Origin: a virus
Taxonomy: Duplodnaviria > Heunggongvirae > Uroviricota > Caudoviricetes
Virus record (IMG/VR): IMGVR_UViG_3300023181_000027
Location: 35,473 to 99,472 of that record
DNA length: 64,000 nt
Strand: one strand, 5' to 3'
Under the pieces are notes generated by a model, which saw only the letters and a list, made by a program, of their open reading frames with translations, was not told the DNA's origin and searched no databases. A program made the translations under genes and the position numbers. Numbering within the stretch: the stretch's first letter is position 1; every line of letters begins with the position of its first letter. Shown here piece after piece: positions 27,084 to 31,339 of the stretch.

Positions 27084-27470
27084 TTAACGGCGGACGGGTA
27101 TATCCCATCCTTTTTGTTTTTTGAATTGTCGGTAATACTTAATAGTCATATGCGCCAAATCAGTTAACATTTGATTATTTGTGTTTCTCAACACCTGCTT
27201 CTTAAAAGCATTTAGATACCAATGATTATTGCCTAATAGCATCGGCGCCAATCGCCACACTACCAGATCAATTAAAGGGTAACATTCAACTTTTAAACCA
27301 TCTACTAAAGTGATAACACCTATTCTTAATTTAAGTTTAGCGTGTTCACTATCAAAGTCTACCGATGCAGTTGGAAAAACAACACGTAGGAGAGAATCGA
27401 GTATACTTAAATCTTCCCTCGTTATACTATTTAAAGGTTTATACCTTCCCCATTTTACATCGTTAAACAT
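27084..27470 (-). CDS. hypothetical protein (128 aa)
   Basis: Track ORF inside the Ter-like cassette. Confidence 0.4.
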   Translation of the reverse strand: MFNDVKWGRYKPLNSITREDLSILDSLLRVVFPTASVDFDSEHAKLKLRIGVITLVDGLKVECYPLIDLVVWRLAPMLLGNNHWYLNAFKKQVLRNTNNQMLTDLAHMTIKYYRQFKKQKGWDIPVRR

Positions 27471-27472
27471 AG

Positions 27473-28471
27473 CTAGTCCTCCTGTTTACTGAATGCTGAA
27501 ACCAGTGTACTAGTAATTAGAATACCGGCAACAATAATCAAACTTAACGTAGATTCAATATGCAACCATGGAGCTATAACCATCTTTACCCCAATAAAGG
27601 TTAGAATAATAGCTAAACCGTGTGGAAGGTATTTGAAAAGCTTAATGAAGTTGTTAAGTAAGAAGTACATTGTCCTCAAACCAAGAATGGCGAAGATGTT
27701 AGACGAATATAGAATGAACGGATCTTTACTTACAGAGAAGATAGCTGGAATACTATCAACTGCAAATAGTAAGTCAGTGAATTCAATTACACCTACAACT
27801 ACAAGTAATGGTGTCGCATAACGAGTAACATGTGTAAATACTCCGACTGCAGTATCTTGCACCTCACTTTTAGTACTAAAGAATTTATCACCATCATAAC
27901 TATCACTTACTTTACCTTTAAATAGCCACCTAATAAATTTAGCACCTGGACTACTTGAAAAGTCTTCTTCTTCATCGTCGTCGTCACCTTTTAACACTTC
28001 TATACCAGATTTAATACCAGCATAAACTAAAAAGAGACCAAACAACAAGAGAAGAATGTTCACTTGATAACCCGCAATACCAACTTCGGTCATGTTAATG
28101 ATACCAACACCAGCAAAGATAAATACGGCTCTTAGTACAATCGCACCAATGATACCCCAGAACAGCACTTTATGCTTGTATGCTTCTGGTACTTTAAAAT
28201 AATTGAATACAAGAATGAAAACAAATAAATTGTCGACACTCAGGGCTTTCTCGATGGTATATGCTGTGAAGAACTCTGTAGCTTTTTGAACTCCAGCATC
28301 AACATAGATAAACGCACCAAATAATACTGACAAACCCACCCAGATACCAGTCCAGATTGTTGCTTGTTTCGTACTTACCCCATTGGGATTTTTGCCACCT
28401 ACTTTGAGGTCGACATATAGCGCTAGCGGTACTATACAGCTAAATGCTATGATTAAATGTAAATCTTGCAT
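27473..28471 (-). CDS. terC: TerC-family integral membrane protein
   Basis: Multi-pass membrane protein with the TerC signature IEKALSVDNLFVFILVF and an acidic loop GDDDDEEED. Confidence 0.75.
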   Translation of the reverse strand: MQDLHLIIAFSCIVPLALYVDLKVGGKNPNGVSTKQATIWTGIWVGLSVLFGAFIYVDAGVQKATEFFTAYTIEKALSVDNLFVFILVFNYFKVPEAYKHKVLFWGIIGAIVLRAVFIFAGVGIINMTEVGIAGYQVNILLLLFGLFLVYAGIKSGIEVLKGDDDDEEEDFSSSPGAKFIRWLFKGKVSDSYDGDKFFSTKSEVQDTAVGVFTHVTRYATPLLVVVGVIEFTDLLFAVDSIPAIFSVSKDPFILYSSNIFAILGLRTMYFLLNNFIKLFKYLPHGLAIILTFIGVKMVIAPWLHIESTLSLIIVAGILITSTLVSAFSKQED

Positions 28472-28474
28472 TGA

Positions 28475-29260
28475 TTATTCGATTATGCCTTTTGATTTGG
28501 CAAGTTTTAAGTAATCCGGGAACTCACCAAGTAGACGGCCATATAGCTCTTCGTCACTTAATGTTTCCAGCTCCTTTTGTGTAAGTTCGAAGAAGTTGGC
28601 ATTGTCAATGAACCTGCCACTCATAACATCCAAACGCTTTAAGAAAGCGAAGTTATCACCTGTCGACAAGCCGATAAACTGCCAGAAAATGCCATATTTA
28701 CTGGCTTCAATGATGGCACGCTCAGCTTCTCTTTCATCAAAGTTACTTCCATCAGTGAGGAACATAACGTACGCTGGATACTTCGCTTTAGTACCAGTGA
28801 TGTTAACTTGCGTGGTTTTCTTCTTAAACAAACCTAAGAAACCCGCTTCCTCTTTCGTCTCTGTTGTAGAGCCAAAGATAGATGGGTCATTCTTATACTC
28901 GTTTGTAATCAACGTGATTGCCGGAGCATAGTTAGTACCACCAAATGAATAACGTGGGATCACGTACTTGTTGATATAACCTTCAACGTTATTGATAGTT
29001 ACAGGTTCTGGAACTTTAATACATCCATCATGGAATACATACTGTTCCATCTCACTGTTGTCATCAAACGCCATTGCGATAGGCGTAAGCCTCTCTTGTA
29101 CACGCTGTACGAAACCTCTATTATAGAGATTCCTCATACTGCCAGAAATATCACAGCAGAATTTGACCAGGGCTTTCTGGTCAATGCTTACACCTTTTTT
29201 CTTTGTCAGGTCAAGAACAACCTGTTTGCTTAAATTAAGCTTTCTTTGTAACTCGCTCAT
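28475..29260 (-). CDS. vWA-domain protein, TerY-like
   Basis: MIDAS motif KFCCDISGSMRN and a second motif VMFLTDGSNFDE, about 260 aa as in TerY. Confidence 0.6.
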   Translation of the reverse strand: MSELQRKLNLSKQVVLDLTKKKGVSIDQKALVKFCCDISGSMRNLYNRGFVQRVQERLTPIAMAFDDNSEMEQYVFHDGCIKVPEPVTINNVEGYINKYVIPRYSFGGTNYAPAITLITNEYKNDPSIFGSTTETKEEAGFLGLFKKKTTQVNITGTKAKYPAYVMFLTDGSNFDEREAERAIIEASKYGIFWQFIGLSTGDNFAFLKRLDVMSGRFIDNANFFELTQKELETLSDEELYGRLLGEFPDYLKLAKSKGIIE

Positions 29261-30081
29261 TGCGTTTGATCTAATAGTAAAAAATTCGTCTTATAAAGCT
29301 CATGATGAGCGTAGTTGTTAGCAAGACCTGCTTTCCACAGGTCTGTACGAAAACGTGGAGACATTGCACCTAACACATATCCGAACATCCCCCTTGATAG
29401 AGATAACAGATACTTAGTCAATCTTGTATTCACAATGATATCGTGAGCCAATAACTCCCAAATGGCAGAACCAACTGGTGTAATCTTAGCATGATTCAAT
29501 TGAGATTCTATTCCAGGATCACATTCGCCAGTAAGTTGGGCGTAATAAGCAAAGACTAAGCTTTTAGATAGTATGTTCAAACTGTCAAACATCTTTTCCA
29601 CTCGTCTCTCGTGTGCTCCAGTAATGTAAATGTCATCGATACAAATGACGTGCTTACCCTCAAGTAAAGCTGGTTCGACATGAAATGTCTCTCCTGTTAT
29701 ACTCTTCTCTCTAAGTTCTGCTGACATATTACCATAATCATCATGGTAAGAATGTTGCCTGCTTATTTTAAAGGTCTTTATAGTTATCCACTCTCCTAAC
29801 CTAGTAGAAGAATGTGGAAGTAACAACCTTTGTAAGAAAGCTGCAGTATACTCAGCAAGAGCAGTCGAAGCAACAGGTACTTGATTGTAAGGAGCTCCAG
29901 TGATAAACACTTCCTCTCCCTCTTTCACTGTATCCATAATGTATAAGCCCAATCTCCAGGCAAGTTCTTGAGCGAACTTTACAGTTACTGACATTTTACC
30001 ATATTTAAACTCTGAATACTGCTCCTTATTAAAGTTTACATCGTCGCTACAACTGAATTTATGAATTGCTATCCTTTGCAT
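29257..30081 (-). CDS. phosphoribosyltransferase (PRTase-fold) protein, Ter-associated type
   Basis: PRPP-binding motif HVICIDDIYITGAHE (hydrophobic-DD-hydrophobic-xTG). Confidence 0.55.
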   Translation of the reverse strand: MQRIAIHKFSCSDDVNFNKEQYSEFKYGKMSVTVKFAQELAWRLGLYIMDTVKEGEEVFITGAPYNQVPVASTALAEYTAAFLQRLLLPHSSTRLGEWITIKTFKISRQHSYHDDYGNMSAELREKSITGETFHVEPALLEGKHVICIDDIYITGAHERRVEKMFDSLNILSKSLVFAYYAQLTGECDPGIESQLNHAKITPVGSAIWELLAHDIIVNTRLTKYLLSLSRGMFGYVLGAMSPRFRTDLWKAGLANNYAHHELYKTNFLLLDQTQ

Positions 30082-30751
30082 AATCTTCCAGTTTATCCCT
30101 CAATTCACACCATGATTGAGCGTTTGTTATTTGAAATGCCTCCATACCAGCTTTACGGGCAGGTACGAGATCTGTAATAGGATCATCGCCAATATGTAGT
30201 GTCTCCTTAGCTGCATGCTTATTAAGCATAACCACATTAAAGTATATTAGTGGATCAGGTTTACACATTCCAATCTCATCCGAGAAGAAGCAGTTAATCC
30301 TGCTAGTGTCCACACCATAATTCTTCAATACCTGCAATAACACTTTACCTTTAACAAATTGCGTGTTACTGACAATTGAAAGGGCATCACTTGCTCCAGC
30401 TCTAAAGTTGTTGATGAGATCAACACATTTAGGATAGATTAAGATTGGCGGATGCTCAAGGACCAACTTGTCAAACAGTGACAGATATGCATTATCGCAC
30501 GCATCTGGACCAATTTTTAACCGATCAAGTACCAGCATATGTTTGAACTCATACGGTACTTCCCTGGCATAACGTTTTTGGAATGTATTCACTTGCCAAC
30601 TCACCTGTTTAAAAGCTAAGTCGATTTGATTGATGTCCAAAACATGATCCTCATAAACTGTTTGAATAATCTCCGCACGTGCTGCACTGTACGAAGGGTT
30701 GCTTTTAAATATGGTTCCCCATAAGTCAAAGCTTAAATGTTTGATTGCCAT
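30059..30751 (-). CDS. HAD-superfamily hydrolase/phosphatase
   Basis: HAD motif I LSFDLWGTIF (DxWGT) near the N-terminus, and a C-terminal motif IV IGDDPITD. Confidence 0.55.
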   Translation of the reverse strand: MAIKHLSFDLWGTIFKSNPSYSAARAEIIQTVYEDHVLDINQIDLAFKQVSWQVNTFQKRYAREVPYEFKHMLVLDRLKIGPDACDNAYLSLFDKLVLEHPPILIYPKCVDLINNFRAGASDALSIVSNTQFVKGKVLLQVLKNYGVDTSRINCFFSDEIGMCKPDPLIYFNVVMLNKHAAKETLHIGDDPITDLVPARKAGMEAFQITNAQSWCELRDKLEDYAKDSNS

Positions 30752-30763
30752 AACGGCTACAGC

Positions 30764-31339
30764 TTATTTAAACGCGTCAACGATTTCACGTAAGGTTCCA
30801 TCAACTGGAGTACCCATCGCATTGAATTTCCACCCACCGTCATGACGATAGAGTTCACCGGCAAATACACCGCTCGCTGTTGAAGAGTCTTCACTCAAAT
30901 CGAAACGATACAGCTCATCACCGGTTTCAGCATTAAAAATACGGATATAGGCGCGATTCACTTGACCGAAGTTCTGTCCTTTAACTGCAGCGTCATAAAT
31001 GTTGACTAAGAACACTAAACGTGCGGCTTTAGCAGCAATATCAGCTAAAGTTACAGTCACCACTTCATCATCAGCGTCTGCGCTGTTACCACCTGTAAGG
31101 TCATCACCAGAGTGTTTAATACCAGCAATCTCAAGATTGGCGAAACACACAATGGATTCAGGTTCTTCGCTGATCAGTTTGTTCTTATCGTCAATGACAA
31201 TAACCGTAGCGTCCAGATCGAAAGTTTTGCCACCAGGTGCAGCTTCATCCCATCCTAAACCAAAACCTACCACTTTTAAAGTTGAATTCTCTTTTGTTAA
31301 AGCCAGCTTCTGGCCTTTTACTAAATTTAAACTTGACAT
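30764..31339 (-). CDS. terD: TerD-domain protein
   Basis: FGLGWDE, DLDATVIVID and the acidic Ca-binding-like stretch GDDLTGGNSADADDE match the TerD/TerE/TerZ family at about 190 aa. Confidence 0.75.
   Translation of the reverse strand: MSSLNLVKGQKLALTKENSTLKVVGFGLGWDEAAPGGKTFDLDATVIVIDDKNKLISEEPESIVCFANLEIAGIKHSGDDLTGGNSADADDEVVTVTLADIAAKAARLVFLVNIYDAAVKGQNFGQVNRAYIRIFNAETGDELYRFDLSEDSSTASGVFAGELYRHDGGWKFNAMGTPVDGTLREIVDAFK

Follow-up and report, generated by a model that had tools for sequence, protein, structure and literature searches.

We analysed a 64,000-nt stretch of an uncultured virus genome (Caudoviricetes; IMG/VR record IMGVR_UViG_3300023181_000027, positions 35,473 to 99,472), hereafter the window, in which a compact block of minus-strand genes encodes the protein families of the tellurite-resistance-associated (Ter) systems of bacteria: TerD, a HAD-fold hydrolase, a phosphoribosyltransferase (PRTase) of the PRTase_3 family, a TerF-type vWA protein and TerC. 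With moderate confidence, we interpret this cassette as a compact, phage-encoded form of the bacterial Ter system for membrane stress and conflict, with superinfection exclusion as its most likely benefit. As part of this explanation, selection would have kept the cassette as one transcription unit in a lineage of uncultured phages of ~135–186 kb. The observations that carry the interpretation are (i) the family assignments, (ii) intact catalytic and metal-binding motifs, (iii) an operon-like layout, (iv) a gene order held across diverged phages and (v) the lack of a closely related bacterial locus that shares this order.

A contiguous operon of Ter-family genes

Six tightly packed open reading frames (ORFs) on the minus strand fill the interval from 31339 down to 27084. 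Read from terD to the last ORF, the intergenic spacings are 12, −23, −4, 3 and 2 nt, where negative values denote overlaps.

30764–31339 (−): terD, first gene of the operon, TerD-domain protein of 191 aa (PF02342, 1.7e-52, full length)
30059–30751 (−): HAD-fold hydrolase of 230 aa (PF00702, 3.6e-10)
29257–30081 (−): PRTase_3 (ComF-like) type I phosphoribosyltransferase of 274 aa (PF15610, 1.7e-38)
28475–29260 (−): TerF-type vWA protein of 261 aa (PF10138, 9.2e-54)
27473–28471 (−): TerC/Alx-family integral membrane protein of 332 aa (PF03741, 5.4e-48)
27084–27470 (−): conserved ORF of 128 aa directly 3′ of the TerC gene, with homologues in relatives

Pfam thus recovered, at these coordinates, all five members of the Ter-associated set that a first-pass annotation of the sequence had named (TerD, TerC, a Ter-type vWA protein, a PRTase and a HAD protein). 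The same annotation had counted five genes between 27084 and 31339; the five domains stand, and the count rises to six with the 128-aa ORF. Because five strong and independent family matches occur in a row, chance is no issue for the Ter assignment. All five proteins also fit existing PHROG families, with TerD belonging to phrog_5698. The defining components of a Ter system, that is, TerD, TerC, a vWA protein of the TerF C-terminal type and a linked pair of PRTase and HAD genes, are present together. The vWA protein had been described as TerY-like; it is in fact TerF-type (PF10138) and carries no TerY_C domain, and with neither a PP2C nor a kinase gene in the cassette and no PADLOC match, the locus does not constitute a TerY-P system.

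The upstream boundary of the operon is set by two further features on the same strand.

31465–31500 (−): intrinsic terminator separating terD from the SPFH gene (13-bp stem, then UUUUUAUU)
31520–32467 (−): membrane-anchored SPFH/Band 7 protein of 315 aa (PF01145, 1.4e-12)

The hairpin and its U-run (31500–31465) begin 20 nt past the SPFH/Band 7 gene. The hairpin was picked out by eye and then tested by folding and shuffling, which gave a free energy of −18.5 kcal/mol and a z-score of −4.55, with 0 of 200 shuffled sequences folding equally well. A consensus scan for promoters and terminators was uninformative (35 sites compared to 25.8 ± 5 expected) and missed this hairpin. Since the terminator lies upstream of terD, the Ter genes start their own transcription unit and the SPFH gene is on a separate transcript. 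A 64-aa ORF at 31353–31547, which spans the hairpin, is probably no real gene.

Conserved motifs of the cassette proteins

TerD retains the motif G78-D79...G83...D89-D90-E91, which is kept across 45 homologues and which we take to be the Ca2+-site motif of TerD proteins, as in the structure of Klebsiella TerD. In the TerF-type vWA protein, the metal ion-dependent adhesion site (MIDAS) residues D37-x-S39-x-S41 and the T-D-G motif at 170–172 are conserved. TerC scores 331 bits against the TerC/Alx model TIGR03718, for which the cut-off is 246 bits.

The best NCBIfam match of the HAD protein is a REG-2-like family IA model, with a score under its cut-off. Motif I reads S-F-D9-L-W11-G-T13, the family form being S-F-D-[LV]-W-x-T. 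Among the window protein and 65 homologues from loci L001–L075, D9, W11, S128-N129, K164 and D194 are invariant (66 of 66) and D189 is present in 65 of 66. Every member of this PRTase_3-paired HAD family therefore has Trp at the Asp+2 position of the general acid/base, D-x-W and not D-x-D, which suggests that its chemistry may differ from that of standard HAD phosphatases. Of the first-pass description as a HAD phosphatase, the fold is borne out and the activity, given Trp at Asp+2, is a prediction.

In the PRTase_3 protein, the loop for phosphoribosyl pyrophosphate (PRPP) keeps D149, D150, G155, H157 and E158 invariant and T154 nearly so across 13 homologues. Its AlphaFold model (pLDDT 90) has a type I PRTase fold with a C-terminal helical extension, and among solved structures, 6-oxopurine PRTases (4.6e-6) and ComF of H. 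pylori come closest to it. Searching PDB sequences with a PRTase_3 profile returned nothing significant.

Gene order in related phages and in bacteria

The order TerD-HAD-PRTase_3-vWA-TerC is shared with four other contigs of uncultured phages, and an identical PRTase occurs on a 134.8-kb contig.

L005, 185-kb contig: PRTase identity 55%
L006, 10-kb contig: PRTase identity 49%
L078, 22-kb contig: five-gene order kept
L082, 183-kb uncultivated virus genome of IMG/VR: PRTase identity 41%

The IMG/VR relatives of PRTase_3 were recovered by an alignment-based scan; a scan of IMG/VR with the single protein returned nothing. These relatives are diverged, with amino-acid identities of 35–77%. TerC is the best-conserved cassette gene (77% in L005, 72% in L006) and HAD the least conserved (35–44% in the same two contigs); the TerF-type vWA protein is 70% and 49% identical and TerD 54% and 39% identical in L005 and L006, respectively. 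The SPFH/Band 7 protein has a 61% identical counterpart at the same position in L005. For the 128-aa ORF, no match was obtained in Pfam, NCBIfam, PHROG or PADLOC, and a word-index homology search returned only the query. Local phmmer searches of related loci placed a homologue at the same position in L005 (55% identity) and a duplicated one in L006 (29% and 22%), and returned none in L078 or in L077, a locus described below.

We collected 68 bacterial loci with the PRTase_3 profile. In most of these, and of 16 viral loci, the gene directly 5′ of PRTase_3 encodes a HAD protein. Bacterial PRTase_3 proteins are at most 34% identical to that of the window, and 0 of the 68 bacterial loci have the five-gene order of the phages. 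The gene-order comparison that the first-pass annotation had proposed therefore separates the four phage contigs, which share the order, from the bacterial ter loci, which do not; in these 68 loci, the cassette does not come out as a ubiquitous, syntenic host block, the possibility which that annotation had raised against itself. The closest bacterial loci found are mostly from Bacteroidales. A metagenome-assembled Tannerella genome (L021) has three TerD genes, two vWA genes, vWA fused to TerY_C, PP2C, a kinase, HAD, PRTase_3 and a P-type ATPase; at 9826–12534 of this locus, the HAD–PRTase_3 pair stands between a defence-type triad and a cation transporter, which connects it with both. In Chitinophaga, the order is HAD, PRTase_3, TerD, TerD, TelA, with TerC and TerD farther along.

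The surroundings of the cassette are those of a large phage of virulent type, as the first-pass annotation had held: genes for a helicase, a family A DNA polymerase and rIIA- and rIIB-like proteins are present in the window. The minus strand carries nearly all genes, and G+C content is uniform at 37–41%. Of the 54 window genes, only 6 have a Shine-Dalgarno-like motif ahead of their start, compared to a background of 15%, and the DNA polymerase is nearest to those of crAss-like phages (38% identity). Because of this rare Shine-Dalgarno use and the crAss-like polymerase, a Bacteroidota-type host is plausible.

The cassette had further been called unusual in a virulent phage, which we cannot uphold. 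Using tblastn against isolated phages, we matched 93 records with TerD, 157 with PRTase_3, 175 with TerC and 212 with the TerF-type vWA protein, with more than 100 Escherichia phage records each for PRTase_3, TerC and vWA, and phage Ter systems have been published. At the nucleotide level, neither the cassette nor a 24-kb part of the window had a Megablast match among 50,697 isolated-phage records, and the phage thus lacks a close relative in that set.

Proposed function of the cassette

We infer the mechanism from the published Ter model (PMC7824862) and from TerC/Alx biology. PRTase_3 would couple a base to PRPP drawn from the host pool, and its obligate HAD partner would process the product, presumably by 5′-dephosphorylation, to a nucleoside-like small molecule. 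TerD as a Ca2+-binding protein, the TerF-type vWA protein with its MIDAS and the Alx-type TerC would act at the inner membrane, where TerC may serve as a divalent-cation transporter or metal chaperone; TerC/Alx proteins are Mn transporters or exporters, or metalation factors (PMC12096827, PMC10197570). The outcome would be an altered ion flux or envelope state of the infected cell, which would shield this cell from envelope insults and from secondary invaders and so amount to superinfection exclusion. We favour this benefit because plasmid ter operons have comparable phenotypes, namely phage inhibition and colicin resistance, as cited in two phage studies (PMC8386662, PMC9796965), and because Iyer et al. 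(2021) proposed that phage Ter systems act against superinfecting phages (PMC7824862).

Several points weigh against this interpretation. The HAD protein is devoid of the Asp+2 general acid/base, and phosphatase activity is a prediction only. For PRTase_3, only the generic type I fold was recovered, which points to no particular base substrate. No PADLOC model matched any cassette protein, and the cassette is therefore not assignable to a catalogued defence system. There is a single TerD gene, phmmer found no TelA homologue anywhere in the 64-kb window, and a scan of the cassette proteins and of flanking ones gave no TerB, ATP-grasp or C-C lyase match. The gene order kept among the relatives could partly reflect shared ancestry and not functional coupling. 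Our literature search brought up no experimental study of a phage Ter cassette, and one study calls the function of phage Ter genes during infection unknown and judges an incomplete phage ter set unlikely to confer tellurium resistance (PMC9796965). With regard to the missing components, TelA, TerB, ATP-grasp and the lyase are optional in abbreviated Ter operons (PMC7824862), so that the cassette represents a reduced Ter variant that is still within the family.

An unlikely but credible alternative is a takeover of metal homeostasis, in which the operon moves or buffers Mn2+ and Ca2+ and thereby feeds metal-dependent phage enzymes or times lysis. TerC would then be the transporter, TerD and the vWA protein would be metal-binding regulators, and the product of PRTase and HAD would be a regulator and no conflict signal. 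Consistent with this, TerC is of the Alx subtype, scores above the curated cut-off and is the most conserved gene of the cassette (72–77%), its relatives have the Mn-related roles cited above, and the Ca-site motif of TerD and the MIDAS of the vWA protein are retained. A P-type cation ATPase follows HAD–PRTase_3 in Bacteroidales, and TerD genes and a Ca2+ ATPase are highly transcribed in gut jumbo phages (PMC12880540). However, an Rfam scan of 24000–34000 identified only a tRNA-Met, and neither a riboswitch near TerC (including yybP-ykoY) nor any other metal-sensing element near the operon. Takeover of metal homeostasis also leaves the constant attachment of a nucleotide-type biosynthetic pair unexplained, and its experimental support in phages is nil.

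A putative Ro60-like protein next to the cassette

The second vWA protein that the first-pass annotation had noted beside the cassette is confirmed.

25161–27059 (−): 632-aa protein of apparently Ro60-like architecture with a C-terminal vWA domain (MIDAS signature, fold comparison)

Its MIDAS signature is complete (D392-x-S394-x-S396, T495, D533). The overall fold appears Ro60-like, with a helical TROVE-like N-domain followed by the C-terminal vWA domain, and TM-scores to Ro60/Rsr structures reach only 0.39–0.49. The RNA-binding Ro60/Rsr proteins, including Ro60 of the Thermus phage phiLo (PDB 9L5Y), combine TROVE and vWA; the 632-aa protein may resemble them by fold, but is without a sequence-level match to TROVE or any other Pfam family. 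Its family comprises 149 clusters at 50% identity, of ~600–690 aa, on phage-like metagenome contigs, and has neither a match among PDB sequences nor a homologue among isolated phages. The window contains no Y-RNA-like element, and Rfam reported no Y RNA near the gene.

Homologues lie directly 3′ of TerC in L077 (8001–9995, 664 aa) and L078 (5947–7878), which with the window makes three contigs that have a member of this family just behind TerC. In L077, the order is TerD-vWA-TerC-664-aa protein, without HAD or PRTase. A further homologue is located 7 kb from TerC in L079; L005 and L006 have none, and two other loci that encode one (L080 and L081) have no Ter genes nearby. The association of the Ro60-like protein with TerC is hence recurrent and not obligatory, and shared ancestry could explain it.

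It is doubtful, and in our estimate decidedly unlikely, that the TelA-less operon, the D-x-W HAD protein and the Ro60-like protein form a phage-specific device. In such a device, a novel nucleotide or nucleoside signal would drive a membrane effector of TerC, TerD and vWA, possibly also RNA-binding, that excludes rivals or disarms Ter-type immunity of the host.

Interference with host Ter or TerY-P immunity as the principal role is quite improbable. TerD, HAD–PRTase_3 and the vWA protein would in that case mimic or override host signalling as a counter-defence, for example by making, sequestering or pre-empting a small-molecule signal of the host. TerY-P is a reported defence system, and in Bacteroidales the HAD–PRTase_3 pair adjoins the triad of TerY vWA, PP2C and kinase as well as TerD genes; the low Shine-Dalgarno use and the crAss-like polymerase of the window are compatible with a Bacteroidota host. 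On the other hand, identity between the phage and bacterial proteins is only ~30%, the vWA protein of the phage is TerF-type and not TerY-type, and we know of no Ter protein with anti-defence activity.

The neighbouring Prs-like and Namat-like genes

The first-pass annotation had further placed the cassette in a coherent PRPP-centred pathway, in which a phage PRPP synthetase feeds both a NAMPT and the Ter PRTase. The genes concerned lie 5–8 kb downstream of the cassette on the same strand.

21726–22589 (−): Prs-like gene, two genes upstream of the Namat-like gene
21256–21735 (−): Nuc_deoxyri_tr2 gene (PF15891, 1.4e-19), between the Prs-like and Namat-like genes
19180–21051 (−): Namat-like gene, previously read as NAMPT, 623 aa, matched to SpbetaL1 Namat

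The NAMPT identity does not survive comparison with solved structures: the protein matches SpbetaL1 Namat, of which 9W5X and 9W5W are crystal structures (PMC12774641), at 1.2e-149 (503 bits), and human NAMPT at 2.6e-57 (198 bits). The Prs-like protein remains below the curated Prs cut-offs (94 compared to 113 bits), and its best phage matches are to Escherichia and Salmonella phages of ~86–89 kb. In NARP1, the Prs homologue Adps pyrophosphorylates ADP-ribose (ADPR), from which Namat then rebuilds NAD+; purified Adps gave no product in a PRPP-synthetase test and converted ADPR with ATP, and Namat is the neighbour of 97% of Adps-clade genes (bioRxiv 10.1101/2024.02.11.579819). The interval 19180–22589 contains the two hallmarks of NARP1, namely a NAMPT homologue of the Namat clade and a Prs-like gene within a few genes of it. 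Because the putative NAMPT is closer to Namat than to NAMPT and a Prs-like gene lies two genes away, the pair is probably, as judged from these similarities, an anti-defence NAD+ module of the NARP1 type, rather than a supplier of PRPP to the Ter PRTase.

A single PRPP-centred unit is consequently very improbable. The neighbourhood of the two modules is kept in L005, L006 and L077, and some activity of Namat in vitro still depends on PRPP (PMC12774641). This is outweighed by the Namat match, by the Adps results cited above, by the low Prs score and by at least eight unrelated ORFs between the two modules; moreover, Ter cassettes with HAD–PRTase_3 occur in bacteria and in phage loci where no NARP genes were detected in the stretch fetched. 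On the basis of the Namat match and the NARP1 signature, we rejected the idea that the Prs/NAMPT genes are functionally linked to the Ter cassette.

The trio of Prs-like, Nuc_deoxyri_tr2 and Namat-like genes is conserved in L005. Nuc_deoxyri_tr2 is an additional nucleoside-deoxyribosyltransferase-like gene that looks inserted in the NARP1 module. The Namat-like protein has 623 aa compared to 491 aa in SpbetaL1 Namat, and is matched in three stretches; its extra sequence, with a weak Flagellin_D3-like match at residues 553–597, may be an insertion or a C-terminal extension.

A passenger fragment that was recently captured from the host chromosome and is useless to the phage is hardly probable at all: Ter genes are common in bacteria and phage–host horizontal transfer of TerD has been suggested (PMC12880540), but the base composition of the cassette matches that of the uniform remainder of the window, all motifs are intact, the order is held in four other diverged phage contigs, and the best bacterial PRTase_3 is 34% identical and bacterial loci are ordered differently (0 of 68 with the phage order), so that recent host capture was rejected.

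Other features of the window

A tmRNA match (RF00023, 78.8 bits, E 6.6e-29) extends over 500 nt at 52678–53177 (−), compared to 374 positions of the model. It was missed by ARAGORN and may be a phage-encoded tmRNA with insertions. Unusually long matches to the tRNA model, of 110–114 nt and 85 nt, are present on the minus strand at 39280–39393, 44120–44229, 51365–51475, 49489–49573 and 54892–54980, and ARAGORN reported two tRNAs with the abnormal anticodon loops ‘cc’ and ‘aggg’. These unusual tRNAs could be intron-bearing, insert-bearing or frameshift-suppressor-like. At 23314–23568 (−), a small membrane protein of 84 aa matches the PQ-loop model weakly, with a score that stays under the cut-off (E 0.0016); small proteins of PQ-loop or MtN3 type occur at a similar position in L006 and L078.

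Significance and comparison with known Ter systems

Of the bacterial stress and conflict genes that lack a known biochemistry, the Ter genes rank among the most widespread, and many virulent phages carry them for unexplained reasons. A minimal, contiguous five-gene phage operon would provide a handy, synthesisable unit for Ter biochemistry. The present analysis opens no new question; its value lies in three corrections, namely that (i) the cassette is common in phages, (ii) its neighbours are probably an anti-defence NARP1 module and (iii) the second vWA protein appears Ro60-like. Ter sets are already known in many virulent phages, and the window is a fresh example whose function we infer.

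Ter systems were described in jumbo and smaller phages by Iyer et al. in 2021, including that of Acinetobacter phage ME3, a ‘relatively complete’ system that has PRTases and HAD (PMC7824862). For phiKp34 (PMC8386662) and PhiPsa374 (PMC9796965), terC, terF-vWA, terD and telA have been reported. Like the window, the large virulent phages of the 2021 study (vB_AbaM_ME3 and Caulobacter jumbo phages) combine TerD, a TerC-like protein, a TerF-type vWA protein and a PRTase–HAD pair in one neighbourhood. ME3 differs in that it has PRTase_2 together with a StiP/PELOTA PRTase and a TerC relative of the DUF475 type, in the order vWA-TerC-x-TerD-x-PRTase-HAD-PRTase, whereas the window has a single PRTase_3 and an Alx-type TerC, in the order TerD-HAD-PRTase_3-vWA-TerC.

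Two of the phage loci that we examined, phiWec179 and KP13-16, belong to the Stephanstirmvirinae. Together with phiKp34 and PhiPsa374-like phages, these phages (KP13-16 being a Klebsiella phage) are isolated and virulent and have the same families as the window, with adjacent HAD and PRTase_3 genes. In these phages, the Ter genes are spread over ~10 kb with many intervening ORFs and include TelA; Escherichia phage phiWec179 (Phapecoctavirus) has HAD, PRTase_3, TerC, TelA, vWA and TerD within ~10 kb, and KP13-16 carries two copies of TerD. The window, in contrast, has a contiguous operon with one TerD and no TelA, and its proteins are 28–36% identical to theirs.

The bacterial Ter neighbourhoods (terZABCDEF of the IncHI2 plasmid R478 and the Bacteroidales loci), reportedly delineated as stress-response systems by Anantharaman, Iyer and Aravind in 2012, comprise the same families with a tight coupling of HAD and PRTase_3. 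They differ from the window in having several TerD paralogues and, depending on the locus, TelA, a TerY-type vWA with TerY_C, PP2C with a kinase, or a P-type ATPase. Compared to these known systems, the D-x-W motif of the HAD protein and the Ro60-like neighbour are details that look unreported, and the cassette is distinguished by its compact, contiguous layout with a single TerD and no TelA.

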